A stretch of DNA of 64,000 nt from positions 48,837 to 112,836 of the forward strand of contig QZKQ01000033.1 in NCBI GenBank assembly GCA_003599535.1. Direction: 5' to 3'. How positions within the stretch are numbered: the first letter of the stretch is position 1; every line of letters begins with the position of its first letter. Positions 3,217 to 52,699 of this stretch are shown here, in pieces. Made by a program: the position numbers and the translations under genes. The stretch is from Candidatus Zixiibacteriota bacterium. GTDB taxonomy: Bacteria > Electryoneota > B3-LCP. The notes below the pieces were generated by a model, which was given only the letters and a program-made list of their open reading frames with translations, had not been told where the DNA came from and searched no databases.

Positions 3217-3311
3217 GCCGGATATTGCAATCCATTGATTTTTCTTGCATTCGCCGGATACGGAAACCATACCCCGCGGAATATGCGTATAATGCCCGAA
3301 TCAGGAAGCAC

Positions 3312-3340
3312 TTGATTCGGGTGTTGATTTGTATTACATT
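3312..3340 (+). promoter_or_regulatory. sigma70-like promoter upstream of kbl (TTGATT-17-TACATT)
   Basis: -35 TTGATT at 3312-3317, 17-nt spacer, -10 TACATT at 3335-3340, 48 nt before ATG 3389. Overlaps the CCCGAAT..ATTCGGG hairpin at 3295-3321. Confidence 0.45.
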
Positions 3341-3388
3341 AATAGGATTTCACTTCGGTATTTCCCCCTTCTCGTTATAGGGTTCACA

Positions 3389-4576
3389 ATGTACGCGAAA
3401 CTGAAAGACTTGCTGACTCAGGAACTGGACGCCTTCCGGGCTTCCGGGCTATACAAGGAAGAACGGGTCATCGAATCGCCCCAGGGGCCCCGGATTACGG
3501 TCAAGGGACGGCCCCTGCTGAACTTTTGCGCCAACAACTACCTGGGGTTGTCCTCCCACCCCAAAGTCATCGAAGCCGCCCACAAGGCGCTGGACGAGTG
3601 GGGTTACGGCATGTCCAGCGTACGCTTCATCTGCGGCACCCAGGAGATTCACAAGCAGCTCGAGCGCAAGGTGGCGGACTTCCTGCGCCAGGACGACGCC
3701 ATCCTCTACGCCGCCTGCTTCGACGCCAACGGCGGGGTGTTCGAACCATTCATGTCGGAAGACTGCGCCATCATCACCGACGCGCTGAACCACGCCTCCA
3801 TCATTGACGGGGTGCGCCTGACCAAGGCCCAGCGGCTGATCTACCAGCACGCCGACATGAATGACCTGGAAAACAAGCTGAAGCAGTCCCGGGACGCCAT
3901 GTTCCGCATGATCGTCACCGACGGGGTTTTCTCCATGGACGGCGACATCGCCCACCTGAAGGAGATCTGCATGCTGTCGGAATGGTACGAGGCCATCGTC
4001 ATGGTGGACGATTCCCACGCCACCGGGTTCATCGGGCCGACCGGGCGCGGCACCCCGGAATACTGGGATGTGGAGAGCAAGGTGGACGTCATCACCACCA
4101 CCTTCGGCAAGGCGCTGGGAGGCGCTTCCGGGGGCGCCACGGTGGGGCACCGGGAGATGATCGACATGCTGCGGCAGCGCAGCCGGCCCTACCTGTTTTC
4201 CAATACGCTGGCTCCGGCCGTCGTGGGCGCAACCCTGGCGGTCCTGGATCTGCTCTCGGAATCGGACGACCTGCGCAAGAAGCTGCAGCTTAACACCAAA
4301 TACTTCCGCGACGGCATGGCCCGCCTGGGCTTCGACATCCGGCCGGGAGTGCACCCGATTGTACCGATCATGCTCTACGAAGCCAAGGCGGCGGTGGAAC
4401 TGGCCTCCCGGCTGCTGGACGAGGGGATCTACGTTATCGCCTTCTCCTACCCGGTGGTGCCCAAGGGCCAGGCGCGCATCCGGGTGCAGATCTCGGCGGC
4501 GCACGAACAGGACCACTTGGACCGGGCGCTGGAAGCGTTCGGCAAGGTGGGAAGGGAACTGGGAGTGATCGGATAG
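3389..4576 (+). CDS. kbl: 2-amino-3-ketobutyrate CoA ligase (glycine C-acetyltransferase)
   Basis: N-terminus [42 protein letters not shown] and the alpha-oxoamine synthase PLP fold are typical of Kbl. Start ATG 3389 inside ORF 3329-4576. Confidence 0.9.
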
Positions 4577-12804: not shown

Positions 12805-14094
12805 ATGAAAAGTTTAGCCGAAGTGGATCCTGAAATTAAAGACGTCATCCGCGGCGAACTGCACCGGCAGAGCTTCACGCTGGAAATGATCGCTTCGGAA
12901 AACTTTACCTCCCGCGCCGTCCTGGAAGCCATGGGATCGGTGCTGACCAACAAGTACGCCGAAGGCTACCCCCACAAGCGCTATTACGGCGGCTGCGAAT
13001 ACGTGGATACAGCCGAAGAACTGGCCCGGGAACGCGCCTGCCGGCTGTTCAAGTGCCGCTGGGCCAACGTACAGCCCCACGCCGGATCGCAGGCCAACAT
13101 GGCGGTTTACATGGCCCTGCTCCAGCCCGGCGATACCGTCATGGGTATGAATCTGTCCCACGGCGGCCACTTGACTCACGGCAGTCCGGTGAACTTCTCC
13201 GGCCGGCTGTACAAGATCATCCCCTACGGCGTGGGCGAGAAGACCGGCACCATTGATTTCGACCAGGTGCGGCAGCTGGCGCACGAACACAAGCCGAAGA
13301 TGATCATGACCGGCGCCTCGGCCTACCCGCGGATTATAGACTTCGCCCGCTTCCGGCAGATCGCCGACGAAGTGGGGGCCTACCTGGTGGCCGACATCGC
13401 CCACATCGCCGGGATGGTGGCCACCGACCTGCACCCCTCCCCCATCCCCCACTGCCACATGGTTACCACCACCACGCACAAGACCCTGCGAGGGCCGCGC
13501 GGCGGGGCCATCATGTCCGACTTCGAGGGCGGGGAAATCCTGCTCTCCGGCATGCCCAAGCCCAAGACCCTGACCGAAGCGGTGGATTCGCTGACCTTCC
13601 CCGGCATACAGGGCGGGCCGCTGATGCACGTCATCGCGGCCAAGGCGGTGGCCTTCAAGGAAGCGCTGCAGCCGGAATACACGGCCTACTGCGAGCAGAT
13701 CCTGAAGAACGCCCAGGCGCTGGCCGAAACTCTGGCCGGAGAAGGCTTCAACCTGGTGTCCGGCGGCACCGACAACCACCTGATGCTGGTGGACCTGCGC
13801 AACATGGACATCACCGGCAAGGACGCCGAAGCCGCCCTGGAAAAAGCCGGCATCACCGTGAACAAGAACACCGTACCTTTCGAAACCCGCAGCCCCTTTG
13901 TCACCTCCGGCATCCGCATCGGCACGCCGGCGCTGACCACCCGGGGCATGAAGGAAGCCGAAATGCGCACCATCGGCAAGTGGATCTCCCGGGTGATCCA
14001 TCATGCCGCCGACGAGAAAGTCATCGCCGAGGTCAAATCCCAGGTCGAAGAGCTGTGCAAGGGGTTCGTGATTTACGGGGATTTGATGGATTAG
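12805..14094 (+). CDS. glyA: serine hydroxymethyltransferase
   Basis: Full-length SHMT with the PLP-lysine motif [14 protein letters not shown]. Confidence 0.95.
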
Positions 14095-14298: not shown

Positions 14299-14320
14299 GC
14301 ACCCGAATAAATTCGGGTGC
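14299..14320. repeat. 22-nt palindrome GCACCCGAAT-AA-ATTCGGGTGC
   Basis: 10-bp arms, 2-nt centre. Identical copy at 37389-37410. Near-identical copies at 23403-23424, 37499-37520 and 28601-28621. Confidence 0.9.
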
Positions 14321-14436
14321 TCCACGGTAGCAGGAAGTCGCTGAAAGCGACTGCCGAATGGCCAACGGTGACCCGGCGGCAATTAACAGATCAAAGGACT
14401 GCTCCTGCGTCTCTGCGTCTCTGCGAGAAACAAATC

Positions 14437-18581: not shown

Positions 18582-19154
18582 ATATTCACCACAGAGACAC
18601 GGAGAATAGAATCCAGAAGCCAGAATACAGGAGTCAGGAGCCAGAAGCTAGGAGAATCCGAGGGTGGAATGGGTGTTCCTGCCTGACGGAGGGCCGATGC
18701 CTCAGTGGCGCAAGCGTCCCCGCTTGCGGTTATCTGCGGCCAGCCACGAAGTGGTCACTGCGTGACAGAAACGCCGGCCTTACTGATCTAATCTTTGAGG
18801 GCATTGCATTGGGATGGCCATCTGCCGGCGGACGGATTGTGGCCACATGAATCCCCGCGTAGGGGCGGGGCTTAGCTTACCCCTTCGGGGACCCCGTCCG
18901 CGACTCCCCAGGAGTCGAATAATAGTAACATCGGGCGCCAGCCCGGGGTGGAGGCGACCTCGTCAATCCTCCCGACTCTGCCACGCAGTCCTGGGCGAGA
19001 CTCGTCCCGCGCCATAACACCAATACGACCACAATCCTCGGTTGACGAAAAGCCATCCATATACGATGAGCTCAACCCGATTCCCCACCGGGCTGTAACC
19101 TTTGTGAGAATGACAAACAGAGCCAGCAGCCAACAGCCAGCAGCCAGGAGCCAT
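18582..19154 (+). repeat. modular hairpin-rich intergenic mosaic, copy B
   Basis: Starts 1 nt after the ispG stop with ATTCACCACAGAGACACGG plus the heptamer tract 18589-18658. Also carries the GGCCATC..GATTGTGGCC module, the CGCAAGCG-TCCC-CGCTTGCG hairpin (18709-18728, also at 41494-41513), GTAGGGGCGGGGC words, and ends in the (AGCCARC)n tract 19121-19152. Confidence 0.75.
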
Positions 19155-20293: not shown

Positions 20294-20730
20294 AATTCAC
20301 CGCAAAGACGCAGAGAACGCAGAGAAAATAGGATCCAGAAGCCGGCAGTCAGAAGAATAGGAGTCAGGAGTCAGGAGTCCGGAGATTCGGACGGCCATCC
20401 GTCAGCCGACGGATCGTGGCCCACACCCCGCAGGGGTGGTCCTTTAGTAGCCGTAGGTTTCAACCTACGGAGAAGGGGAATCCCATACCTCCTTTTCTAC
20501 AACCCTGAAGGGGTTGACCATAATCCGTTCAATCCGTTCCATCTGTTTCATCTGCGATTCTGACGTGGGGCCGCCAGGAATCGCTTCGCTTTCCCTAAGG
20601 GACCACTGCGTGGCAATCCTGGCGGTAACGAGGAATATTTCTCTGTAAGCCGTAGAGCACCCGCTTCAGCGGGTAGCATGATAGTAGCCCAGGAATTCAT
20701 TCCTGGGTGGGTTGCCAACCGCCACCTCCC
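20294..20730 (+). repeat. modular hairpin-rich intergenic mosaic, copy C (most complete)
   Basis: Module order: heptamer tract 20294-20385; GGCCATCCGTCAGCCGACGGATCGTGGCC; CACCCCGCAGGGGTG; CCGTAGGTTTCAACCTACGG; CCCTGAAGGGG; AATCCGT repeats ending ATCTGCGATTCTGAC (20550-20564); GCCGCCAGGA..TCCTGGCGG stem (20570-20625); ACCCGC-TTCA-GCGGGT; CCCAGGAAT-TC-ATTCCTGGG (20688-20707). Confidence 0.85.
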
Positions 20731-22809: not shown

Positions 22810-23295
22810 ATGAAGCGATATGAAGCCCCGCGCAAGGAATTGATCGAAGGCGTGGCGGTCAAGGATCTGAAGATCATCCCTGACGAGCGCGGCCGGCTGA
22901 TGGAAATCCTGCGCTCGGACGACCCCCTGTTCGTCAAGTTCGGCCAGGTGTACATGACCACCAACTACCCCGGCGTAGTCAAGGCCTGGCACTACCACAA
23001 GCAGCAGGTGGACCACGTGGCCTGCGTCAAGGGGATGATCAAGCTGGTCATGTTCGACGACCGCGAAGGCAGCCCCACCCGGGGGATCCTCAACGAATTC
23101 TTCCTGGGCGAGCATAACCCCAAGCTGGTGCGCATCCCTTCGGGGGTGTGGCACGGCTGGAAGGGGGTCAGCGAGACCGAGGCGCTGATCGTCAACACCA
23201 CCACCGAGCTGTACGACCCGGCCAATCCGGACGAATACCGGCTCCCCTTCGACACGGACAAGATCCCTTACGACTGGGCGATACGGATGGGGTGA
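22810..23295 (+). CDS. RmlC-like cupin (dTDP-4-dehydrorhamnose 3,5-epimerase-related sugar epimerase)
   Basis: ..IIPDERGRLMEILRSDD..GQVYMTTNYPGVVKAWHYHKQQVDHVACVKG.. is the small epimerase-like cupin pattern. Confidence 0.75.
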   Translation: MKRYEAPRKELIEGVAVKDLKIIPDERGRLMEILRSDDPLFVKFGQVYMTTNYPGVVKAWHYHKQQVDHVACVKGMIKLVMFDDREGSPTRGILNEFFLGEHNPKLVRIPSGVWHGWKGVSETEALIVNTTTELYDPANPDEYRLPFDTDKIPYDWAIRMG

Positions 23296-23424
23296 CCCCG
23301 GAATAAATTCCGGGGCTCTCCCGTAAAACCAAGTCACTGAAGTGACTGGCGATGTTTCGAAATCACGGCAGTCTCTTTAGAGACTTTCAATCCTAAAAGA
23401 GAGCACCCGAATTCATTCGGGTGC
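23296..23424 (+). repeat. about 130-nt four-hairpin composite element (copy J) upstream of gcvPB
   Basis: CCCCGGAAT-AA-ATTCCGGGG (23296-23315), AGTCAC-TGAA-GTGACT, AGTCTCT-TT-AGAGACT (23370-23385), GCACCCGAAT-TC-ATTCGGGTGC (23403-23424). Collinear with 37389-37520. Confidence 0.85.
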
Positions 23425-23514: not shown

Positions 23515-24969
23515 ATGTACGACAAACTCATCTTCGATCTGTCCAAACCCGGCAAGACCGGCGTCTCTCTGCCCCAGACAGACGTTCCGCACCGCGATAA
23601 TCTGATCCCGGACCAATTGCGCCGCAAGGAACCCATTGGGCTGCCCGAAGTCAGCGAACCGGAAGTGATGCGCCATTTCCACAACCTCTCGATCAAGAAC
23701 CACCACATTGACAAGGGCTTCTACCCCTTGGGATCGTGTACCATGAAGTACAATCCCAAGATCAACGAAGTCACCGCGCGGCTGTCCGGCCTGGCCGACC
23801 TGCACCCCTTGCAGCCGGCCGAACAGGTCCAGGGGGCGCTGCGGCTGCTGGTGGAACTGGGCGAGGCGCTGCTGGAAGTATCCGGCATGGACGGCGTCAC
23901 CCTGCAGCCCGCCGCCGGGGCTCACGGCGAACTGACCGGCCTGCTCCTGATGCGCGCCTACCATGAATCCCAGGGGCACCCGCGCCGCAAGGTCATCATC
24001 CCCGACAGCGCCCACGGCACCAACCCGGCCTCCATCATCACCGCCGGCTACGAGGTGGTGCAGATCCCTTCCAATGCCGACGGGCTAATTGACGTCCAGG
24101 CTCTGAAGAACGTGCTGGACACCGAAGTCGCCGCCATGATGATCACCAACCCCAACACCTTGGGAATGTTTGAATCCAACATCCTGGAGGTGGCGGAACT
24201 GGTCCACAACGCCGGCGGGCTGCTGTACATGGACGGCGCCAACCTGAACGCCATGCTGGGCATCACCCGCCCGGGCGACATGAACTTCGACGTGGTGCAC
24301 ATCAACCTGCACAAGACCTTCTCGACGCCACACGGCGGCGGCGGCCCCGGAGCCGGCCCCGTGGCGGTCAAGCAGCACCTGGTCCCCTTCCTGCCCGGCC
24401 CCCTGCCGGTCAAGGATGGCGATAAGTACCACTGGCAGGAACCCGGGCCGCAGTCCATCGGCCGGGTGGGGAGCTTCTACGGCAACTTCGGCGTGCTGGT
24501 GCGGGCCTACACCTACATCCTGATGATGGGCGCCGAAGGCCTGCGCCAGGTCAGCGAACGCGCGGTCATCAACGCCAATTATCTGCGCGCCCTGCTGGAA
24601 CCGCACTACGAGCTGCCCTACAAGCGCCGCAGCCTGCACGAAGTGGTGTTCTCCGGCGACGGCCTGAAGCCCTACGGCGTCAAGACCACCGACGTGGCCA
24701 AGCGCCTGCTGGACTACGGCTATCACGCGCCCACCATTTACTTCCCGCTGATCGTTCATGAGGCGCTGATGATTGAGCCGACCGAGACGGAATCCAAGGA
24801 GACCCTGGACGCCTTCGCGCAGGCCATGATCAACATCGCGGAAGAGGCTCGGACCAACCCCGAGCTGCTGCACCGCGCGCCGATTGCGACTCCGGTGGGC
24901 CGCCTGGACGAGGCCGGCGCCGCTCGCGCTCTGAACGTCGTCTACAAGCCGGAAGCCGAGCAGAAATAG
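23515..24969 (+). CDS. gcvPB: glycine dehydrogenase (aminomethyl-transferring) subunit 2
   Basis: Full-length GcvPB with the PLP-lysine region [18 protein letters not shown]. No gcvPA/T/H adjacent. Confidence 0.95.
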
Positions 24970-25041: not shown

Positions 25042-25442
25042 GGGGCCGGGATGGCAGAACCGGAAGTACTGCACATAAGTATAAGAGTAGTCAGGAGCCG
25101 GGAGTCAGGAGCCAGAAGTCTCGGAGGCATAGCACCCCTGGAGAACGTAACCTGTCCTCTCCTCTTTTCCCGAACGACATCCGCGAAATCTGTCAGATCT
25201 GAGCCAATCTGCGATTCAGAAAAGAGTAAAATTTCCGTGGAATCCGTGTGATCCGCTCGATCCGTGATTCTGACCATTTCCTGACCGTGAGATTGCTTCG
25301 GCCCGCCCTTTGGTGGTCTATTCTGACGGATGATGACAACCTCCAGGTCACAGACTCGTTCAGGCTTTATCTCCGGCGGGCCTCGCAATGACACTGCGAT
25401 TCGGGCGGAGTCAAGCCCCCCTACGCGAGCAGTCACCAGCGA

Positions 25443-25529: not shown

Positions 25530-25569
25530 CCAGCCAACAGCCAACAGCCAATAGCCAGCAGCCAATCCC

Positions 25570-28509: not shown

Positions 28510-28569
28510 TCTGAAGCCCCCTATTCCGAACCCTGCCGCGCAGTGGTCTCTGAAGAAGTGTTGGGCTAC

Positions 28570-28621
28570 AGTGGTTTTAACCACTTGATTGTGCAAGAGA
28601 GCACCCGAATTTATTCGGTTG
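28570..28621 (+). repeat. short hairpin composite (copy L) upstream of the epimerase gene
   Basis: AGTGGTT-TT-AACCACT (28570-28585) then AGAGAGCACCCGAAT-TT-ATTCGGTTG (28601-28621), a degenerate member of the 22-nt palindrome family. Confidence 0.75.
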
Positions 28622-28641
28622 TCAAATCGCGGAGGTCCTGA

Positions 28642-29046
28642 ATGAAAAAACTCGACCATATCGCCATCGCCGTCCCTGACCTGGACGCCGCCGAAAGGAT
28701 CTGGCGGGAAGCGCTGCAGTTGGAATGGAAGGGTTGGGAGGAAGTCCCCGAACAGAAGGTGCTGACCAGCATCTTCCGCGCGGGGGTGACGCGCCTGGAA
28801 CTGATCACGCCCACGGCGGAAGATTCCCCCATCACCGGCTTCCTGGAGCGGCGCGGGCCGGGGCTGCACCATATCTGCTTTGAGGTGGACGACCTCGAGG
28901 CTGAAATGGAACGCCTGAAGGAGCAGGGCATCCGTCTGCTGAACGAGGCCCCGCGCGCCGGCGTGGGCGGATCCCGGGTTGTCTTTCTGCATCCCAAGGA
29001 CACCGGCGGAGTGCTGGTGGAGGTGATGGAGAAGAAGAAGGGGTAA
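28642..29046 (+). CDS. mce: methylmalonyl-CoA epimerase (VOC/glyoxalase fold)
   Basis: LDHIAIAV.., ..GPGLHHICFEVDD.. and ..FLHPKDTGGVLVEV.. are typical of MCE. Confidence 0.82.
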   Translation: MKKLDHIAIAVPDLDAAERIWREALQLEWKGWEEVPEQKVLTSIFRAGVTRLELITPTAEDSPITGFLERRGPGLHHICFEVDDLEAEMERLKEQGIRLLNEAPRAGVGGSRVVFLHPKDTGGVLVEVMEKKKG

Positions 29047-33661: not shown

Positions 33662-36172
33662 ATGGGACATGCCTACCGCTTCTTGTTTGCCGGCTTGATG
33701 CTCGCCCTGTCCGCCCTGCCCGCCCGGGCTGTGGTGGACCTGAATTCCGCCCCTCTTGACCAGATCCAATCGTTACCTTTAAGCCCGGAGCAGGCCCGGG
33801 CGATCTGGGAGCGGGTGTACTACCAGGGGCCCCTGGGGAGTCTCTACGATCTCTTCGATCTGCCCGGCTTCGACACCCCCACGGTGGAAGCCCTGCGTCC
33901 CCTGGTGCGGGTGGAACCCCCGGTTTCCGGCGACCTGCGCGCCGCACGCCGGGAACGGCTCTCCCGGCGCCTCAGCGACCTGGGCACCGATGAAGGCTCC
34001 GGGGCCGCCTGGTCGGACGCCTGGTTCGACCGGCTGGTGGATCCCCTGAACGTCAACCGGGCCTCCGCCGAAGAGATGGCGGGACTGGAAAACCTCTCCC
34101 CGGTGGACGCGGTGGCCATCTACAACCAGGTCAGGTCTCAGGGCGAGCTGAAGAGCGTGCGCGAGCTGCGCACCGTCCCGGGGCTGTCCCGCTTCGGCTA
34201 CTATTCCGCCCGGGATTACCTGGTGTTCGAGGACGCGGCGGAGATCCGCGCCCTGCACGGGTCCTACCAGTTCCGCGCCTACAATATCCCCTACTTCCAG
34301 GATGAAGAAGACGTCATCCCCGCTGAAGCCCTGCGAAGTCCCGAACCGGATCTGACCCACAAGCTGCGCCTGAACTACGGCCGGCAGTGGCGCTTCGGCC
34401 TGTCCTATCACCGCAATTTCGGCGAACCGGATGCCTACTTCAATCCCGGCGCCGGATTCCAGATCCCCGAAGTAAAAGCCTACCTGGGGCTGGAAGATCG
34501 TCCTCTCGGTCCCGTGAAACTGGAGCGCGCTTACCTGGGCAATTTCCACGTGTCCGTGGGGCAGGGGTTGATCGTGGAGACGGGCGATTACTTCACGCCG
34601 CGCTATTCCGGCTACGATTTCGCCCAGCGGCCGTACGGCGTGATTGGGGACTTGTCGCGCACCCGGGAATACGGCTTCCGCGGTGTGGCGGCGCAGGCTG
34701 CGTGGAAGAAGCTCTCGGTCCTGGGCTTCGTGTCCCTGGACGAGAAGGACGCCGTGGTCAATCCCGACGGCTCCTTCAGCTATCTGGTCTCCCTGACGCC
34801 CCGGCAGGACTTCGACCTCTACCCCGCCGCCCTGGCCGATCCGGAAGACAGCAGCAGTTGGGTGGACCCCTATCCCGGTACGCAGAGCCCGCTGGAGGCG
34901 GTCAAGGAATTCGCCGCCGGCACCAACCTGCAGTACCGTTTCGCCCCGGGGTCGCACGTGGGCGTGACCTACTTCGAGACCCTGTACGATCGGGAGCTGC
35001 ACCCCGACATCTACGCCCTGGTGGATTCGGCCGAATACGACGAGATCAACGACGACTACGCCAACGCGGAAATCCTGAACTCCTACTCGTCCCTGGCGCG
35101 GTCGTCCATCTGGGGTCCGGCGCAGTCGCTGCGGCGCATCTACGGCCTGGAAGGACGCTGGGTGGTCAATAACCTGGCCTTCCAGGGGGAAGTGGCTGAA
35201 CTGGAGGTGGACGGGTCGCCCTTCAAGTTCGGCGACGACCCCAAGGCCATGGTCTTTTCTGCCTTCGCCCAGTGGAACAGCGTGAATCTGCTGGCTCTCT
35301 ACCGCCACTACGACGTGGCCTACGACAACCCCTACAATCGCGGCTTCGCCAACTACTCCCGCTACAAGGGCACCATTTTCGAAGATTACTACTACCTGAA
35401 CGATCCGACGTTGGGATCGCTCTACACCAACGCCGCCGCGCCCCAGGCCGAGGACGGAGTGTTCCTGAAATCGCGGGTGCAGTGGAGCCGCCAGGTGACT
35501 TCACAGGTGGAACTGGACAACTGGACCCGCCTGGCCGACGGGCAGGACTACCACCGCTGGGTGGTGAAACTCTACTACCGGCCGGTCTACCCGGTACAGT
35601 TCAACCTGCGGCAGAAGTTCCAGGCCCGCGCGGCGCTGAATCCGTTCGACAAGCAGTACTACGACAGCCGGGAAAGCCGCCTGACCCTGCGCCTGCTGCT
35701 GTCCCGCCGCGACCGGGTGGAACTGTTCTACGCCGCGGGGTACACCCAGTGGCCGCCCCGCCCGCGCTTCAGCGGCGACCCTGCGCCCACCGGGAATTAC
35801 ACCTCCATCGGCAACAACGCCGTGCACAACGAGGCGCTGGGAATCACCCTGGAACACCACTTCAGCAACCGCTTGCAGGCTTCCGCCTTCTGGGGGATGT
35901 ACCAGGGCTTCCTGTGGACCTTCGAGGACACCGATTTCATCATCCTGGACGGGGAAGCGACCCGCGCCTGGTTCGCCCTGGCCTCGCGGCTTTCCGACCA
36001 GATTTCCGTGCGCCTGAAGTACGCCTTCGAAGACGGCCTGCCGGTGACCAACGTCCAGGCCCGCGATAACAACGAGTGGCCTGTCCAGCAGCCGGTCGGC
36101 CAGCCCACCTCCGCCTGGAACGTGACCGACCACACTGATTCCTTCCGGGTGCAGGTGGATTGGTATTTTTAA
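33662..36172 (+). CDS. helix-hairpin-helix (ComEA-like) motif protein fused to a large predicted outer-membrane beta-barrel
   Basis: Signal peptide MGHAYRFLFAGLMLALSALPARA. HhH-like motifs VDLNSAPLDQIQSLPLSPEQARAI and VNRASAEEMAGLENLSPVDAVAIYNQV. About 600 aa of amphipathic beta-strand pattern ending ..FRVQVDWYF (terminal aromatic OMP signal). Confidence 0.62.
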   Translation: MGHAYRFLFAGLMLALSALPARAVVDLNSAPLDQIQSLPLSPEQARAIWERVYYQGPLGSLYDLFDLPGFDTPTVEALRPLVRVEPPVSGDLRAARRERLSRRLSDLGTDEGSGAAWSDAWFDRLVDPLNVNRASAEEMAGLENLSPVDAVAIYNQVRSQGELKSVRELRTVPGLSRFGYYSARDYLVFEDAAEIRALHGSYQFRAYNIPYFQDEEDVIPAEALRSPEPDLTHKLRLNYGRQWRFGLSYHRNFGEPDAYFNPGAGFQIPEVKAYLGLEDRPLGPVKLERAYLGNFHVSVGQGLIVETGDYFTPRYSGYDFAQRPYGVIGDLSRTREYGFRGVAAQAAWKKLSVLGFVSLDEKDAVVNPDGSFSYLVSLTPRQDFDLYPAALADPEDSSSWVDPYPGTQSPLEAVKEFAAGTNLQYRFAPGSHVGVTYFETLYDRELHPDIYALVDSAEYDEINDDYANAEILNSYSSLARSSIWGPAQSLRRIYGLEGRWVVNNLAFQGEVAELEVDGSPFKFGDDPKAMVFSAFAQWNSVNLLALYRHYDVAYDNPYNRGFANYSRYKGTIFEDYYYLNDPTLGSLYTNAAAPQAEDGVFLKSRVQWSRQVTSQVELDNWTRLADGQDYHRWVVKLYYRPVYPVQFNLRQKFQARAALNPFDKQYYDSRESRLTLRLLLSRRDRVELFYAAGYTQWPPRPRFSGDPAPTGNYTSIGNNAVHNEALGITLEHHFSNRLQASAFWGMYQGFLWTFEDTDFIILDGEATRAWFALASRLSDQISVRLKYAFEDGLPVTNVQARDNNEWPVQQPVGQPTSAWNVTDHTDSFRVQVDWYF

Positions 36173-36598
36173 GCAAGAATCCAGAAGCCAGAATACAGGA
36201 GCCAGGAGGTCCGGAGGGTGGGATAGGCATTCTTGCCTGTCGGAGGGCAATCCGTCTCCTGACGGATCGTGGCCAACACCCCGAAGGGGTGATCTTTTTG
36301 TAGCCGTAGGTTTCAACCTACGGAGAGGATCAGCCTCCTCCCCTTCTCGACCCCGTAGGGGTCGAACCATGTAATCCGCGTAACCTGCTAAATCGTTGAA
36401 AATCTGCGATTCTGACGGGGAGAGGAAGCGACCCCCGCCGCCAGGAATCGCCACTTAAGGGCGGGCTTAAGTCCCACTTCGCTCCAATCCTGGCGGCAAC
36501 GTGAAGCACCCGGCACACTCTGGATCCCATGGTTCGCTGGGAGGACATCGCCGAGAACCGAGAGCCGAGAGCCAACAGCCAAGCGCCAACAGCCATAC
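36173..36598 (+). repeat. modular hairpin-rich intergenic mosaic, copy D
   Basis: Same module order as copy C: heptamers AATCCAGAAGCCAGAATACAGGAGCCAGGAG, GATCGTGGCC module, CACCCCGAAGGGGTG, CCGTAGGTTTCAACCTACGG, GACCCCGTAGGGGTC, ATCTGCGATTCTGAC (36402-36416), GCCGCCAGGA/TCCTGGCGGC (36437-36497), (AGCCRAS)n 36556-36594. Confidence 0.85.
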
Positions 36599-37388: not shown

Positions 37389-37520
37389 GCACCCGAATAA
37401 ATTCGGGTGCTCTCTGAAAGCCAAGTAATTGAAACCACTAAAGCCAGTGGTCTTGAATCACTATATTTCAGTCTCTTTAGAGACTTTATTCCTATGGAGC
37501 ACTCGAATTTATTCGGGTGT
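37389..37520 (+). repeat. about 130-nt four-hairpin composite element (copy K) upstream of ltaE
   Basis: GCACCCGAAT-AA-ATTCGGGTGC (37389-37410), CCACT-AAAGCC-AGTGG, AGTCTCT-TT-AGAGACT (37470-37485), GCACTCGAAT-TT-ATTCGGGTGT (37499-37520). Collinear with 23296-23424. Confidence 0.85.
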
Positions 37521-40949: not shown

Positions 40950-41608
40950 CCACGGAAATAGAATTCAGAAGCCAGAATTCAGAAGCCAGAAGAAGAATAC
41001 AGGAGCCAGGCGTCAGGAGCCAGGAGCCGGGAGTCAGGAGCCAGAATATCACCCCGCAGGGGTGGTCTTTTAGTAGCCGGGGCGTTTTCCCGAAGGGACC
41101 ACTGCGTGGTAACCCCCGGAGAACGGATTCCCCACCCTCCTGTGCCACCCTGAAGGGGTGGACCATAATCCCCTCCCTCCGTTCTATCTGCGATTCTGAC
41201 CATGAGATTGCTTCGGCCGCTGAAAAAACGCGGCCTCGCAATGACACTGCCGGGCGATGGGCGGAGATTGCTTCGGCCGCTGAAAACCGCGGGCCTCGCA
41301 ATGACACTGCCGGGCGATGGGCGGAGATTGCTTCGGCCGCTGAAAACCGCGGGCCTCGCAATGACACTGTTAGTTAAGCATCAAGCGTCAAGAACCCCCG
41401 GCGGACTGCGCGGCGGGTTAATGAATTGAGCGAAGGATGGGTTCGGCGCTCCGCCGCTTAGTCCGCCCTACAACACTCCCCACATGAAGGTGGCGCAAGC
41501 GTCCCCGCTTGCGATTGTTTCCACCGGCAGAGACGCCGGCGCTATCCTCTTTTACTTATTACTTATTACTTTATACTTCTTTTATCTCTGACTTCAAAGG
41601 AGCTTTTC
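40950..41608 (+). repeat. modular hairpin-rich intergenic mosaic, copy G; right arm of the inverted pair around the YhaM-like gene
   Basis: 12-unit heptamer tract 40961-41044; arm 41059-41200 ending ATCTGCGATTCTGAC; tandem 60-mers 41204-41369; GGCGGACT..AGTCCGCC stem 41400-41467; CGCAAGCG-TCCC-CGCTTGCG 41494-41513; TACTTAT-type heptamers 41550-41590. Confidence 0.88.
41204..41369 (+). repeat. tandem direct repeat, 60-nt unit x 2.8
   Basis: Units 41204-41263, 41264-41323 and 41324-41369 of GAGATTGCTTCGGCCGCTGAAAACCGCGGGCCTCGCAATGACACTGCCGGGCGATGGGCG. Units 2 and 3 are identical. Unit 1 differs in the AAAAAACGCGG loop. Each unit carries an ATTGC..GGCCGC/GCGGCC..GCAAT hairpin. Confidence 0.92.
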
Positions 41609-43417: not shown

Positions 43418-45346
43418 CTACTTGATTAGTACCATCTTCCAACTGAGCGTCTGTCCTGCCGTCTGCAGGCGGTAGAGGTACATTCCTGAAGCCAATCCCG
43501 ACCCGTCGAAGGTTGCCCGGTGAGTCCCCGCTTCCCGCCAGCCGTCCACCAGGGTGGCAACTTCCCGCCCGGCGGTATCGTAAACCTTCAGGCTGACGCG
43601 GCTGAAGGCGGTAAGCTGATAACGGATCGCCGTCGCGGGATTGAAGGGATTGGGGTGGTTGCCCATTAAGGAGGTCGCCTGGCGTAAGGCCGTTCCCGGC
43701 AGCTCGAAGCTCCGGCTGACCTCCCCGTCGGACAGGGTAGCGATGACCGGGCCGCCGGTTCCGTCTCCCGCTGTCGCCGATTTTTCAAAGGTGAAGCTGT
43801 CGAAGCTTTCAATTCCCATGGGGTGTTCGCCCACATAGGCCGTGACGGTGTAGGTTCCGGCCATGGCCGTGCCGGGCAGAGTTAACCCCAGCACGCGAGC
43901 CAGGGTACCGCCGGCCGGCAGGTACAGGTCTTCCCGCAGCACCATGGGAACGACCTGGCTGTCGGGCTGCTGCAGGGTGTACCAGGCGTCGTACAGGTTG
44001 AAGTAGTCGGGGGAGTTGGTGATGGCCAGGCCGAATTCCACCGTGCCTCCGGCGGGCGGCAGGACGATGGGGCTGCCGAACGGCGTCAGGCTGATGGTGC
44101 AGGTGCCCTGCGGCTGGTTCTGGTCGAAGTAGTGGGCGCCCACGTCGGCGAGGGTGCTGTCGGGGTCCGGCGAAGCCAGGGGGCTGCCGGTGTCAATGCA
44201 GGGGCTGTAGGGCATCAGGTTGAAATTGATCCCGCCGACGAAACAGGGGTTGGCGTCGAAATTCCCCGCCCCCGGATACATACCCTCCACGTCGCTGTAG
44301 GTCAGGACCAGGCTGCTGCCGGTTTCGACGTAGATCCCGAAGATGTTGTTGCGCAGGATGTTGTTGCGTCCGAAGGGATGGGAATTCTGCCACACCCGCA
44401 ACCCGTGGGCCCCGTTCCACATAATGGTACAGTTGTCAATCAACGGAGAGCTCTGGTTGTAGCAACTGACGGCCACGTTACCGTTCAGGCAGAGTTCCGC
44501 GTACATCACTTCGGGACTGGAGAAGTTCCGGCAGTAGAGTCCTGAGCCGGACATTCCGACAGACATGTTCTCGCTGATGGCGCCGTAGTGGATTGCGGGC
44601 GAACTGTGATCCAGCAGAATTCCTCCTCCGTTGGCGGTCTCGGCGGCATTGTGGTGAATGAAGTTGTTCTCGAACAGGCCGTGGGTGTAGGTGCAGTGAA
44701 TGCCGCCGCCGTTATCCGCCCGGTTGTTCCAGATGATGTTGTCATGCAGGTAGGGGTTGGCGCAATCGTCCAGGAACAGGCCGCCGCCGTCGCTTTCGCA
44801 GAAGTTCTGGGTGATGACGCAATGGTCAATTTCCGCGTTGCACTTGCGCAGGTAAACACCCCCGCCCTTGACGTCGGCGTTATTCTGTTTGATGGTGCAA
44901 TAGCGCAAAACCAGCATGCAACTGTCGGCGTGGATGCCGCCGCCGCGGCTGTCCGGCTGACCGACGGTGCCCTGGGCGTGGCCCCGTTCGATGGTGCAGT
45001 AGACCAGCTCGGAGGTACCCTGTGATTGCAGGAAGCGGAGCCCCGCCCAGGAGCCGGCCGAGCCGACGGCGTAGGACATCAGGATCATCTCCTGCTCGGT
45101 GCCCAACGCCCTCAGGACGCCGTGCACCAGAAAGCGGTAGTGGCCGGTGAAGCACACCTCCACGCCCGGCTGAATGACCAGGCTGTCACCGGCGGGCACG
45201 TCAATGTCCGACACCACCAGGTAGGGCGACCCGGCGGCGGTCCAGGCGCCGGTGACGACGCCGGAAACGATGGTATCTGCGCGTAGCGCCGGCACGGTCA
45301 GGATCAGGATCGCCAGCACAGCGCAACCGAAGCGTAGTCTTTTCAT
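43418..45346 (-). CDS. secreted right-handed parallel beta-helix repeat protein with T9SS C-terminal sorting domain
   Basis: Signal peptide MKRLRFGCAVLAILILTVPALRA. PbH1-type repeats (..GGGIHA.., ..GGGVYL.., ..GGGLFL.., ..GGGIHC..). CTD ..HPNPFNPATAIRYQL..VSLKVYDTAGREVATL..SGMYLYRLQ..KMVLIK. Start ATG at 45346. Confidence 0.8.
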   Translation of the reverse strand: MKRLRFGCAVLAILILTVPALRADTIVSGVVTGAWTAAGSPYLVVSDIDVPAGDSLVIQPGVEVCFTGHYRFLVHGVLRALGTEQEMILMSYAVGSAGSWAGLRFLQSQGTSELVYCTIERGHAQGTVGQPDSRGGGIHADSCMLVLRYCTIKQNNADVKGGGVYLRKCNAEIDHCVITQNFCESDGGGLFLDDCANPYLHDNIIWNNRADNGGGIHCTYTHGLFENNFIHHNAAETANGGGILLDHSSPAIHYGAISENMSVGMSGSGLYCRNFSSPEVMYAELCLNGNVAVSCYNQSSPLIDNCTIMWNGAHGLRVWQNSHPFGRNNILRNNIFGIYVETGSSLVLTYSDVEGMYPGAGNFDANPCFVGGINFNLMPYSPCIDTGSPLASPDPDSTLADVGAHYFDQNQPQGTCTISLTPFGSPIVLPPAGGTVEFGLAITNSPDYFNLYDAWYTLQQPDSQVVPMVLREDLYLPAGGTLARVLGLTLPGTAMAGTYTVTAYVGEHPMGIESFDSFTFEKSATAGDGTGGPVIATLSDGEVSRSFELPGTALRQATSLMGNHPNPFNPATAIRYQLTAFSRVSLKVYDTAGREVATLVDGWREAGTHRATFDGSGLASGMYLYRLQTAGQTLSWKMVLIK

Positions 45347-45476
45347 GGTACGTCCTTTGGATGGGAGAGCGGCGCAGATCCGGGGGCCGGAGTGCGCAAA
45401 ACGGGCGAAGAGGCGGACCGGATGATCCGCCCCTTCGGTTACTACCACACCATGGCGAGGGGCATGGAATCGCAGG

Positions 45477-47411
45477 TTACTTCATCAGGGTCATCTTGCC
45501 GACGGAGCGGACCTCGCCCGCCTGCAACACGTACAGGTACAGTCCCGAGGCCAAACCGGAGGCGTCGAAGGTGACTTCGTGCGAACCGGCCGCCCGCCAG
45601 CCGTCCACCAGGTCCGCCACCTGCCGCCCCTGCAGATCATAGACTGCCAGGCGCACCGGGGCGGCCTGGGCCAGGTCGAAGGCGATGGTGGTGGTGGGAT
45701 TGAACGGATCAGGGTAGTTGCCCTTCAAGGCGGTCGCCTGGGGCAGGGCCGTTCCCGGCAGCTCGAAGGTCTCGCTGACTTCGCCGTCGGACAGGGTGAC
45801 CGTGGCCGGACCTTCGGGGAGACCGTCGGTCGCGGACTTTTCGAACGTGAAGCTGTCGAAGTCCTCGATCACCGTGGGATGCTCGCCCGTGTACGCCGTC
45901 ACGGTGTAGGTTCCGGGCATGGTCGTGGAGGAGAGGGTCAGGCTGAGGGTCCGGGACAGGTTGCCTCCGGCCGGCAGGTACAGGTTGGTCCGCAGCACCA
46001 TGGGGATGATCTGGCCGTCCGGCTGCTGCAGGTTGTACCACCCGTCGAACAGGTTGAAGTAGAGCGGCGAATTCATGATGGACAAGCCGAACCATACCGT
46101 GCCCCCGGTGGGCGGCAGGACGATGGGGCTGCCGAACGGAGTCAGGGTAATGGCGCTGGTGCCCTGCGGCTGGTTCTGGTCGAAGTAGTGGGCGCCCATG
46201 TCGGCGATGGTGCCGTCGGGGTCCAGCGGCGCCTGGGGGCTGCCGGCGTCAATGCAGGGGCTGAAGGGCATCAGGTTGAAGTCGTCGCCGTAGGGGTTCA
46301 CGAAGAATGGCTGGACGTTGATGTTGCCGGCCCCGCTCCAGTAGACTTGGATATTGCTGTAGGTCAGGTAAATGCTGCATCCCGAGCTGACGTAGAAGGC
46401 GTAGCTGTTGCCGGTGATGATGTTGTTCCGGCCGAAAGGATTGGAGCTCAGGTAGGTGCGGATGGCGTAGCTGCCGTTGCCGTGGATGGTGTTATTGTCA
46501 ATGGTGGGAGAACAGTTGTCCCCGCAGTAGATGGCGGTGTAGTTGTTGAAGCAGATCTCGTTGTACATCAACAGGGGGCTGGCGAAATGCTGGCAGTACA
46601 CCCCGGCGCCATAGCTGGAGGAGGCGGTATTATGGTTGATCTTGCAGTTCTGTATCAGCGGCGAGCTGTGGTCCAGGAGAATGCCGCCGCCGTTGCTGGA
46701 AGTGGCGGAATTATAGTTGATCACATTGTCCGACAGCACGCCCCCGGTGTAGACCAGGAATAGGCCACCGCCGTTGTCGGCGCTGTTGGAAGTGATCACG
46801 TTGTCGTGAATGTCGGCGTTGTTGGTGTATTCCACGAACATACCGCCGCCGTCGCCGTTACAGGTGTTGTTAGTGATGAGATTGTCATGAATCGCGCCGG
46901 TGATATTATGGGCGAAGATGGCCCCGCCCTTGGTGTCCGCCTTATTCTGATAGAAACGGCAGTTGTGGATGCTGAGCGCGGCGCTGAGGGCGTGCACTCC
47001 GCCCCCCTTGCTGGAGGTCTGGCCCACCTGGCCCTGGGCGTAACCCCACTCGATCACACAGTAGGCCAATTCACTGGAGCCCACGGTATTTTCGAAGAAC
47101 AAACCCGCCCAGGTGTAGTTGGGGTAGGGAAGGTGGTGCGTGAAACGGATGGAATCCGTAGGGGTGCCGACCGCGGTCATGGGGCCGTGAGCGATGAGCT
47201 TGAACTGGCCGGTGAACTTGACTTCCACGCCGGGCTGAATCGTCAGACTCAGGGCCGCGGGAATTTCCACGTCCGCCAGCACCACGTAGGGCGATCCGGC
47301 GGTGGTCCAGGTGCCGCTGACCTGGCCGGCGACGTAGGTGTCGCACAGGGCCGGTTGCGTCCAGAAGGACAACAGGATCAACAGGCTGCCAAGGGGAATG
47401 AGTCGCTTCAT
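45477..47411 (-). CDS. secreted parallel beta-helix repeat protein with T9SS CTD (tandem paralog of 43418-45346)
   Basis: Signal peptide MKRLIPLGSLLILLSFWTQPALC. Collinear with its neighbour along the full length. CTD ..YPDPFNPTTTIAFDL..LAVYDLQGRQVADL..SGLYLYVLQ..KMTLMK. Start ATG at 47411. Confidence 0.8.
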   Translation of the reverse strand: MKRLIPLGSLLILLSFWTQPALCDTYVAGQVSGTWTTAGSPYVVLADVEIPAALSLTIQPGVEVKFTGQFKLIAHGPMTAVGTPTDSIRFTHHLPYPNYTWAGLFFENTVGSSELAYCVIEWGYAQGQVGQTSSKGGGVHALSAALSIHNCRFYQNKADTKGGAIFAHNITGAIHDNLITNNTCNGDGGGMFVEYTNNADIHDNVITSNSADNGGGLFLVYTGGVLSDNVINYNSATSSNGGGILLDHSSPLIQNCKINHNTASSSYGAGVYCQHFASPLLMYNEICFNNYTAIYCGDNCSPTIDNNTIHGNGSYAIRTYLSSNPFGRNNIITGNSYAFYVSSGCSIYLTYSNIQVYWSGAGNINVQPFFVNPYGDDFNLMPFSPCIDAGSPQAPLDPDGTIADMGAHYFDQNQPQGTSAITLTPFGSPIVLPPTGGTVWFGLSIMNSPLYFNLFDGWYNLQQPDGQIIPMVLRTNLYLPAGGNLSRTLSLTLSSTTMPGTYTVTAYTGEHPTVIEDFDSFTFEKSATDGLPEGPATVTLSDGEVSETFELPGTALPQATALKGNYPDPFNPTTTIAFDLAQAAPVRLAVYDLQGRQVADLVDGWRAAGSHEVTFDASGLASGLYLYVLQAGEVRSVGKMTLMK

Positions 47412-47560
47412 GATTGCTCCTCCGATGAGGGTAAGAACTGGATTGAGGGATTCTTTAGTGATCAAGCGAAAACCAGTGGAGGAATAGCATCTCATGCAGC
47501 CATAATGATCGTGGATTACACAATGCTTCCGTCGTAAGCACCGCCGAGACTACCGGCCAT

Positions 47561-52618: not shown

Positions 52619-52671
52619 TGGGCCCAGCAGGATTCGAACCCGCGACCCACGGATTAAAAGTCCGTTGCTCT
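52619..52671 (-). tRNA. 3'-terminal fragment of tRNA-Lys(UUU); 5' acceptor strand and D-arm missing
   Basis: The reverse complement is AGAGCAACGGACTTTTAATCCGTGGGTCGCGGGTTCGAATCCTGCTGGGCCCA. It contains the anticodon arm ACGGA-CTTTTAA-TCCGT, the T-arm GCGGG-TTCGAAT-CCTGC, and the acceptor 3' strand plus discriminator A. Adjacent sequence has no GGGCCCA or GCTC D-stem. Confidence 0.75.
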
Positions 52672-52699
52672 TGTGCGGGAAAAGGGGCAAAATCGGGCG

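Follow-up and report, generated by a model that had tools for sequence, protein, structure and literature searches.

Hairpin Repeats of Probable REP/BIME Type and a Candidate Y1 Transposase Partner in Uncultured FCB-Group Bacteria

Among the described systems, those closest to the repeats reported here are repetitive extragenic palindromes (REPs), with the bacterial interspersed mosaic elements (BIMEs), the REPINs and the REP-associated tyrosine transposases (RAYTs) that make up 'REPtrons', as well as the IS200/IS605 insertion sequences (IS) and their Y1 enzymes. A role of Escherichia coli REPs in the regulation of translation has been reported (Liang et al. 2015, cited in PMC5581495). According to excerpts of a survey of Y1 enzymes (PMC6006769), IS200/IS605 elements multiply as entire units, and their two ends are formed by unlike hairpins of the same strand. 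The same excerpts describe a 'subclass 1.2' as IS200-like, low in copy number and found mostly in Cyanobacteria and Bacteroidetes, generally without the terminal hairpins of IS200, and with the entry 'REP: no'. Here, we analyzed a 64-kb stretch of DNA (64,000 nucleotides of contig QZKQ01000033.1, Candidatus Zixiibacteriota bacterium; hereafter the window), in which an initial annotation had noticed a 22-nucleotide (nt) palindrome beside genes of glycine and threonine metabolism and had considered either a shared operator or leader, or selection for a hairpin as in REP elements. The latter idea was borne out and could be extended by compensatory changes, inverted doublets and a tie to a Y1 gene. 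We consider it likely that the palindromes are not operators but the main hairpin of a REP/BIME-type family of mobile non-coding repeats moved by a Y1 enzyme, and that their siting beside Gly/Thr genes is coincidental.

The palindrome is not free-standing. It is hairpin 1 (H1) of an oriented two-hairpin unit of ~55 nt, comprising H1 (consensus GCACCCGAAT-AA-ATTCGGGTGC), the trinucleotide CTC, 10-14 mostly A-rich bases, and hairpin 2 (H2), AGTnnnT(G/A)AAnnnACT, in which the three inner base pairs vary among copies (CGC/GCG, CAC/GTG, CTC/GAG, or GGT/ACC). The flanks outside the palindrome are common to the copies and present in both orientations; H1 of the main family carries GGTGC-TC(N) on its inner side, and its outer flank is not conserved. 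Two units placed face to face constitute a four-hairpin module (H1-H4) with a length of 105-147 nt, or ~130 nt in the window, and such inverted doublets were observed twice in the window and 14 times elsewhere. Employing the covariance model R1, which was built from 32 half-modules (alignment A3) and on whose scale full units reach 48 bits or more, as against ~28-35 bits for bare H1 hairpins, we detected seven units in five spacers of the window with filters off (Table 1). All seven are intergenic, four of them form the two inverted doublets, and the six main-family units scored 57-63 bits, including two that lie outside the training set. The occupied spacers are glyA/tag, cupin/gcvPB, radical-SAM/ltaE, dinG/mce and deoxynucleoside kinase (dNK)-like/glycosyltransferase, the first three of which touch glyA, gcvPB and ltaE. 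Units on the forward strand (14299, 23295, 37389) are located 0-205 nt after the stop codon of the upstream gene, and those on the reverse strand (23368-23424, 28568-28622, 37468-37520) directly precede the next gene. Modules often span the gap between genes on the same strand and often lie within 15 nt of a stop codon; several reach from shortly past the stop codon almost to the next start, within a few bases on either side.

Exact copies of GCACCCGAAT-NN-ATTCGGGTGC are present at positions 14299-14320, 23403-23424 and 37389-37410, and copies with two mismatches at 28601-28622 and 37499-37520. Three of the four copies initially described as perfect are therefore exact, and the fourth, at 37499-37520, is imperfect (GCACTCG...GGGTGT, with mismatches of the G-U type); the degenerate copy reported in front of mce, the methylmalonyl-CoA epimerase gene, was confirmed with its two mismatches. 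The pattern was matched in none of 100 dinucleotide-preserving shuffles of the window. Moreover, the core GAAT-NN-ATTC occurs seven times as compared with 0.68 expected, a count to which the stem variants CCCCGGAAT..ATTCCGGGG (23296) and CCCAGGAAT..ATTCCTGGG (20688) contribute. Both outer-stem variants pointed out initially, CCCCGGAATAAATTCCGGGG at 23296-23315 and CCCAGGAATTCATTCCTGGG at 20688-20707, were found.

The covariation suspected from these variants is real, and far stronger than can be seen in the window alone. In an alignment (A2) of 16 modules from the window and from other uncultured bacteria of the Fibrobacteres-Chlorobi-Bacteroidetes (FCB) group, 96.3% of the cells in the four local hairpins are paired, with compensatory changes on both sides in 15 of 34 pairs (56 cells), and none of five pairing measures was reached by any of 500 shuffles. 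When the partners were slid by 1-3 columns, pairing fell to 24-40%. Each module had been retrieved via one perfect H1 or H4, so that this particular hairpin is biased; most of the covariation, however, resides in H2, H3 and the other end hairpin, i.e., in those hairpins that played no part in retrieval. When the two halves are paired with each other (H1 with H4, H2 with H3), the value is only 81%, which is below every shuffle. The halves disagree at variable positions in 10-14 of the 16 modules, and they usually represent different stem variants (CCCG, CCAG or CCGG; GAAT or GATT). A long cruciform or REPIN-type hairpin was rejected as the conserved structure since half-to-half pairing lies below the shuffles, although it is still possible in the module at 37389-37520, where the minimum-energy fold pairs H1 with H4 (-60.1 kcal/mol, z = -10.6) because the two are nearly identical there. 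For the module at 23295-23424, the RNA fold (-55.7 kcal/mol, z = -7.2) keeps H1 and H4 as local hairpins at the two ends and joins H2 to H3 in the center, and the single unit at 14299-14354 folds into two local hairpins (z = -4.7). Taken together, the conserved feature is four separate local hairpins under purifying selection for pairing.

Other roles were considered for the hairpins. An intrinsic terminator was ruled out for the units, since H1 is followed by CTC(N) and the A-rich linker in 32 of 32 units and no T-run directly follows it. A promoter reading of H2/H3, with TTGAAA as the -35 element, was dropped by eye, as there is no -10 box at the right spacing. In a search of the window with Rfam 15, no family reached its gathering score except for a tRNA fragment, and the glycine riboswitch was not matched; likewise, no Rfam family covers H1 in 18 related loci. 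The tRNA fragment, the sole Rfam match in the window, is located at 52627-52676 on the reverse strand and corresponds to model positions 10-63 of 71 (30.6 bits).

The distribution of the family was followed in other genomes. In 80 unrelated genomes, the 1.31 Mb surrounding glyA contained no unit detected by R1 (best match 20 bits, E = 0.13). The exact 22-mer was found at 15 loci in 185,579 species genomes; about half of these are ordinary terminators with T-runs, the same stem being an ordinary terminator in unrelated genomes at L002, L006, L008 and L010. Three contigs of the metagenome-assembled genome (MAG) 'Calditrichaeota bacterium DeMMO3_2' show the full four-hairpin design, one of them with three successive spacers in 8 kb. 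When metagenome contigs were scanned for the 18 specified bases, at least 120 loci were obtained, and among the matches listed the full module is present in ~20-25, the others representing the hairpin in other repeat mosaics or terminators. The occurrence of the bare 18-22-nt palindrome across phyla was rejected as evidence, because stems of 9-10 base pairs are expected often in collections of this size and several matches are plain terminators; from the cross-phylum matches only Y1 adjacency and full-unit matches were used. The strict unit pattern occurs in only 4-5 species of the 185,579 (DeMMO3_2 on 12 contigs with at least 14 matches, LCP-89 bacterium B3_LCP at five loci, two further MAGs and one odd contig), and R1 returned 45 matches, comprising full units and weaker H1-only matches, in 147 kb of DeMMO3_2 and LCP-89 loci. 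The family is present in a handful of uncultured FCB-group lineages, namely the window organism, LCP-89 bacterium B3_LCP, DeMMO3_2 and a few metagenome populations. LCP-89 is a candidate division of phylum rank within the FCB group and, judged by GcvPB alone, appears to be the nearest named relative of the window organism: the group of GcvPB proteins at 75-83% identity includes LCP-89 B3_LCP (76%), and all others reach at most 66% (Zixibacteria 65%). Exact copies of GlyA, GcvPB or Mce of the window are not on record.

A candidate for the mobilizing enzyme emerged from the hairpin-bearing loci. Six-frame open reading frames (ORFs) of 135 such loci (among the matches listed, fetched by H1 alone) were scanned with a crude HUH-plus-Y regular expression, which returned nine ORFs of ~150 amino acids, each located at most ~100 nt from H1. 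All nine are Y1_Tnp proteins (PF01797, E-values of 1e-24 to 1e-29). tblastn added two more, giving 11 of the 135 loci with a Y1 gene and 124 without. At L161, H1 is present on both sides of the gene, and the same hairpin sequence is found beside Y1 genes in lineages with 28-57% G+C. The proteins pass the IS200/IS605 model NF033573 (73-87 bits, cut-off 55). Their motifs, [DE]H[VIL]HLL, W[QAG]RGYGAFSVS and YIxNQ[DE]EHH, match the signature of subclass 1.2, to which they would belong by motifs rather than by a tree.

For the reverse test, 80 loci were fetched by the Y1 protein alone, 75 of which were usable, and 76 glyA loci served as controls. A hairpin with the same stem was present on both sides of the Y1 gene within 350 nt in 27 of the 75 loci as compared with none of the 76 controls, and 12 of the 27 pairs are exact inverted copies. 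The protein-fetched genes belong to FCB-group lineages, Acidobacteriota, Verrucomicrobiota and Planctomycetota; inverted hairpin pairs flank Y1 in Acidobacteriota, Verrucomicrobiota, Ignavibacteria, Calditrichia, Cloacimonadota and LCP-89. The common bracketing layout is CACCnnnn-TTCA-nnnnGGTG ... AACCGTTTTAACGGTT ... gene ... AACCGTTAAAACGGTT ... CACCnnnn-TGAA-nnnnGGTG, outside of which the flanks TCTCATTNA and TNAATGAGA are conserved. Cultured members of Flavobacterium, Chryseobacterium and Hymenobacter mostly lack comparable flanking pairs, in agreement with the published 'no REP'. In addition, a locus of LCP-89 B3_LCP (L304) carries a Y1_Tnp gene (91 bits; EEHVHLF, WQKGYG, YVLNQAQHH) between two full modules, at 2161-2286 and 2707-2832, which score 41-55 bits per unit against R1. 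The link to Y1 rests on these three independent associations together and not on L304 alone. The units are dispersed and polymorphic between relatives, and hairpins of this type stand in physical linkage with a Y1 HUH gene, as in a REPtron; the family is probably moved by an IS200-like Y1 enzyme.

A further composite was observed at L134, where ~244-nt tandem repeats lie on both sides of a Y1 gene (1560-2100 and downstream of 2577), each with CACCCGAATGAATTCGGGTG and a conserved tail TTA(A/C)(T/G)ATAATCAGAGCCATCTATATCACCGCGTTGAAACGCGGTGA; this composite recurs in ~17 metagenome loci of ~55% G+C.

Several observations weigh against a REP/BIME-type family moved by Y1. In place of a GTAG or CGTC tag, which it lacks, the main family bears CTC at the inner side of H1. 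The linkers vary among the copies in the window, which consequently look old, with no sign of recent movement, and there is no Y1 gene in the 64 kb of the window. The H1-adjacent Y1 proteins fail the model NF047646 for REP-associated tyrosine transposases (29-38 bits, cut-off 80). The bracketing at L304 is weak when taken alone, since the locus was fetched for its units. Moreover, the Y1 frame at L304:2604-2661 is open from just after a TGA and has no ATG, GTG or TTG before the first conserved strand, which its first ATG would remove; the frame is either a recent pseudogene or has an unusual start, and may be decaying. Finally, hairpins are arranged as H1-H2-gene-H2-H1 around the Y1 genes of Acidobacteriota, whereas whole modules flank the gene in LCP-89, and since the order differs between lineages the modules are not simply gene-deleted copies.

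A mechanism can be proposed by analogy with TnpA of IS200/IS605 and TnpA-REP of E. coli, as presented in excerpts of PMC6006769, PMC3479197 and PMC8266576. The Y1 enzyme would bind H1 folded in single-stranded DNA and would cut at a short flank beside it, the conserved CTC/GAG being the obvious candidate. The element would then be rejoined elsewhere without target duplication, as for RAYT/TnpA-REP with REPs. Copies in spacers would persist since those landing in genes would be lost. The inserted hairpins would be transcribed within operons, and may affect the stability of mRNA 3'-ends or the translation of neighbors, as do REPs of E. coli.

We further conjecture that the hairpin loops are favored insertion targets, given the nested palindromes and the 13 extra central bases in the hairpin upstream of kbl. 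Small palindromes, several of them with GTAGG, are nested in the loops of H1 or H3 at L297:2985-3030, L302:6835-6865, L304:3830-3850, L313:4075-4100 and L316:4345-4375. A broader proposal is tentative and may well not hold: Y1 proteins of subclass 1.2 (Y---Q--HH) could be the mobilizers of a large REP-like class of their own across several phyla, with a unit composed of a 'CACC-N4-loop-N4-GGTG' hairpin and a 'AACCGTTTTAACGGTT'-type hairpin, in Acidobacteriota, Verrucomicrobiota and many FCB-group lineages. In the LCP-89 group, this class would take the form of four-hairpin modules whose halves are kept different so that no long cruciform arises, new copies and small palindromes would enter hairpin loops, and the whole would represent a second, independent route of domestication from IS200 to REP.

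The regulon question was addressed by comparison of orthologous spacers. Four syntenic relatives (L314-L317; 76-83% GcvPB identity, LCP-89 B3_LCP among them) keep the gene order UbiA-Maf-RodZ-IspG-PCC-...-cupin-gcvPB-dinG-mce. With R1 and filters off, no unit was detected in the cupin/gcvPB or dinG/mce spacers of these relatives, and L316 carries units elsewhere. The cupin/gcvPB spacer has a length of 44 nt in LCP-89 B3_LCP as opposed to 155 nt in L316; a HicB/HicA toxin-antitoxin pair (hicAB) occupies it in L314 (4254-4681), and in L315 (8142-9482) it contains a TnpB (Cas12f1-like_TNB) gene with 518 nt of non-coding DNA behind it. The genes dinG and mce overlap in two of the relatives and are 57 nt apart in L316, and L315 has no dinG-mce pair after gcvPB. 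As the orthologous spacers lack units, the gcvPB module and the mce unit are therefore insertions specific to the window lineage. As a side observation, the cupin/gcvPB spacer looks like an insertion hot spot that is occupied by the module, tnpB or hicAB depending on the lineage.

Elsewhere, the neighbors of the units are BadF-type ATPases, a methyltransferase, an ABC permease, spermidine synthase, isochorismatase, HisRS, M42 and M16 peptidases, DUF362, type 9 secretion system (T9SS) cargo and one aminotransferase fragment. When nine Gly/Thr proteins of the window were compared by tblastn with 777 kb of hairpin-bearing loci, a single weak kbl/bioF-like match of 40% identity was obtained, and none in 147 kb of LCP-89 and DeMMO3_2 loci. 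The aminotransferase beside the L316 doublet, considered as a kbl candidate, is not kbl, as it gave no tblastn match.

The palindrome as the operator of a dimeric regulator, or as a leader RNA, co-regulating kbl, glyA, gcvPB and ltaE would be in line with the three of five occupied spacers that touch glyA, gcvPB or ltaE, with the two units that end 18-19 nt before the starts of ltaE and mce, with the H1-related hairpin upstream of kbl, and with a unit ~100 nt before a kbl/bioF-like gene at the metagenome locus L107. Yet, with 33 spacers of at least 55 nt eligible in the window and five occupied, the three spacers touching kbl, glyA, gcvPB or ltaE correspond to a hypergeometric P of 0.078 (0.081 with weighting by spacer length and 0.099 if only upstream spacers are counted), values that precede any penalty for a category chosen after seeing the data. 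The glyA copy, moreover, is located 205 nt downstream of the gene and not upstream. Neither the gcvPB nor the mce unit is shared by the four syntenic relatives, no unit occurs near glyA in 80 loci, and in DeMMO3_2, LCP-89 and metagenome loci unrelated genes are flanked. The hairpins themselves argue in the same direction: operators do not look like perfect 10+10 palindromes that have conserved asymmetric flanks and are accompanied by a second covarying hairpin, compensatory stem changes would not be tolerated by a base-specific operator, and there is no match to any Rfam family, the glycine riboswitch included. A Thr/Ser/Gly regulon thus found no support, and we regard this explanation as hardly credible; the siting beside glyA, gcvPB, ltaE and mce is a by-product of which spacers were hit.

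Alternatively, the hairpins could be RNA elements selected by the host, such as intercistronic mRNA stabilizers, processing sites or U-less terminators, that have spread without a dedicated transposase, the link to Y1 being incidental and due, e.g., to an insertion preference of Y1 elements; indeed, REPs serve some IS elements as insertion targets. The location of the modules between same-strand genes, often from stop codon to start codon within a few bases, the G-U type of the mismatches on the sense strand in the three start-proximal copies of the window, and the high stability of the hairpins as RNA all fit. However, a module is a dyad with the same hairpins on both strands, its two hairpin variants are not consistently oriented with respect to the neighboring genes, other genomes show A-C mismatches on the sense strand about as often as G-U, and no U-run follows H1. 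The recurrence of the same hairpin beside Y1 over 28-57% G+C is more readily explained by a conserved protein that recognizes it than by local RNA needs, and hairpins bracket Y1 genes from both sides in an inverted, REPtron-like orientation. We therefore hold this explanation to be unlikely, and note that co-option by the host after insertion is compatible with a mobile family moved by Y1. Conventional miniature inverted-repeat transposable elements (MITEs) of ~130 nt, with terminal inverted repeats and moved in trans by a DDE transposase as in the Correia/ERIC type, would explain the size of 105-147 nt, the ends that are inverted repeats of each other and the intergenic location. Nevertheless, target-site duplications are not visible at the borders of any of the 16 modules, single units stand alone (14299, 28568), and conservation resides in four self-complementary hairpins rather than in mutually pairing terminal repeats. 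Furthermore, the only transposase found to adjoin belongs to the Y1 HUH enzymes, which depend on hairpins and leave no duplications; no DDE partner turned up beside the modules, although no systematic search was made. A MITE origin is accordingly very improbable, and REP/BIME-type repeats moved by Y1 are the reading that we retain.

Upstream of kbl, a 'split' copy of the palindrome at 3295-3321 had been noted initially. Its CCCGAAT/ATTCGGG stem is indeed shared beyond chance, with 0 pattern matches expected, and as RNA it folds with ~16 base pairs (-21.9 kcal/mol, z = -5.6). As a member of the unit family it was rejected by its score against R1 (6.6 bits, E = 8.4). The split palindrome is a relative of the H1 hairpin that stands outside the unit family.

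The features of the window are compiled in Table 1. The gene names given initially, i.e., kbl, glyA, tag, gcvPB, methylmalonyl-CoA epimerase and ltaE, proved right by NCBIfam. The divergent unit in the dNK-like/glycosyltransferase spacer has a homologue in the MAG DeMMO3_2 (L003, 318-369).

Table 1. Repeat units, the kbl-proximal hairpin and selected genes of the window.
Feature	Position	Strand	Details
Single unit, glyA/tag spacer	14299..14354	+	H1 14299-14320, CTC flank, H2 AGTCGCTGAAAGCGACT 14336-14352; 60.5 bits, E=5e-12 vs R1, outside training set
Divergent GTAG-tagged unit, dNK-like/glycosyltransferase spacer	20657..20708	-	Hairpin GCACCCGCTTCAGCGGGT, then AGCATGATAGTAG, then CCCAGGAATTCATTCCTGGG (20688-20707); 34.5 bits, E=4e-6 vs R1, outside training set
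Four-hairpin module, most of cupin/gcvPB spacer	23295..23424	.	H1 23296-23315 (CCCCGGAAT variant), H2 23332-23347, H3 23370-23385, H4 23403-23424; units 59.1 and 62.6 bits vs R1
Single unit, dinG/mce spacer	28568..28622	-	H1 28601-28622 (2 mismatches), H2 AGTGGTTTTAACCACT 28570-28585; ends 19 nt before mce start; 57.6 bits vs R1, outside training set
Four-hairpin module, radical-SAM/ltaE spacer	37389..37520	.	H1 37389-37410, imperfect H2 ~37425-37441, H3 37470-37485, H4 37499-37520; ends 18 nt before ltaE start; units 60.2 and 62.4 bits vs R1
H1-related long hairpin upstream of kbl	3291..3326	+	CCCGAAT/ATTCGGG stem, 13 extra central bases; not a full unit
kbl	3329-4576		NCBIfam
glyA	12805-14094		NCBIfam
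gcvPB	23515-24969		NCBIfam
Methylmalonyl-CoA epimerase (mce)	28642-29046		NCBIfam
ltaE (threonine aldolase)	start 37539		NCBIfam

Between positions 1 and 42 kb, nearly every gene of the window is on the forward strand, and the spacers are unusually long and rich in repeats. Tandem heptamer tracts of the (C)AGGAGC, CAGAAGC and AGCCAAC types are present in many of them (18608-18654, 19118-19153, 20323-20394, 25086-25128, 25532-25564, 36172-36218, 36533-36595, 40960-41040), and unit-bearing spacers contain other long repeat families, e.g., 20387-20473 and 36240-36326 with 89% identity. On the reverse strand, 43418-45448 and 45477-47495 encode adjacent tandem paralogues of ~675 amino acids with 70-79% DNA identity over several stretches (families D1, D4 and D7).

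Two further hairpin contexts were observed outside the window. A match to the Acido-Lenti-1 RNA (RF01687, 42.6 bits) lies directly beside a module at L204:946-992, and its GTCGGGGTC...GACCCCGAC hairpin is also inserted in one DeMMO3_2 module, between H2 and H3, and lies beside an LCP-89 unit (L003:1355-1385, L003:285-330, L300:1657-1705); the Acido-Lenti-1 'sRNA' may itself be a mobile hairpin of these spacers. In metagenome contigs of low G+C (L103, L106, L124, L132, L135, L137, L172, L183 and L202), H1 occurs in the fixed context GGATG-H1-TGG(C/A)(G/C)TG(G/T)...GGGGCT, for which there is no Rfam match.

The finding in the window is in itself ordinary, and the link to the enzyme adds modestly but genuinely to published work. 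In LCP-89 and relatives, a candidate phylum that has hardly been studied, it provides a REP/BIME-like family with an apparent Y1 partner of the IS200 branch. The sole survey defining that branch called it REP-less, and if the link is confirmed it would widen the range of domesticated transposases that move hairpins. The covarying stems, the CTC flank and the differing halves would then offer a natural data set on the reading of DNA hairpins by Y1. Modules within a few bases of stop or start codons may influence expression of the flanking housekeeping genes. For annotation, the palindromes at gcvPB, ltaE and mce should not be used to infer a Gly/Thr regulon.

Like REPs, BIMEs and REPINs with the RAYTs of REPtrons (PMC2817692, PMC3116915, PMC6006769), the family consists of short extragenic palindromes that are single or arranged as inverted doublets, with several stem variants per genome, located between or after genes and with hairpins maintained by compensatory changes. 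A Y1 HUH gene flanked by the repeats, of a low-copy kind as in REPtrons, is present in the relative LCP-89 B3_LCP, and H1 alone adjoins Y1 in 11 other loci. In contrast to REP/BIME, a unit contains two hairpins instead of one and the main family shows the inner CTC flank in place of a GTAG/CGTC tag, GTAG being confined to the 20657 subtype; in contrast to REPINs, the halves of a doublet are usually distinct stem variants that do not pair with each other. As judged from excerpts of the description of GTAG-tagged REPs (Di Nocera et al. 2013, PMC3733652), that subtype (20657-20708) and its DeMMO3_2 homologue resemble them in carrying ...ATAGTAG directly 5' of a CCCRGGAAT..ATTCCYGGG hairpin, whereas the six main-family units have no GTAG. 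The partner enzyme differs from RAYTs in that it is IS200-like (class 1) rather than TnpA-REP (class 2), with YIxNQxEHH as opposed to a YIxxNP-type motif and failing NF047646. With IS200/IS605 the system has in common the Y1 HUH enzyme, which passes the corresponding model, hairpins adjoining the gene and the lack of target duplication; unlike IS200/IS605, its flanking hairpins are inverted copies of one type, and the gene is rare and the hairpins are dispersed without it. The partner protein can also be compared with subclass 1.2 of TnpA-Y1, as far as the excerpts of PMC6006769 describe it. The motifs [DE]H[VIL]H, W-Q/A/G and YIxNQxEHH (Y---Q--HH) of the H1-adjacent Y1 genes agree with that description, as do the short core, the small conserved C-terminal tail and the low copy number. 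No REPs are ascribed to the subclass in these excerpts, and our literature search revealed no later report of any, whereas many of the members examined here are flanked by inverted hairpin pairs.

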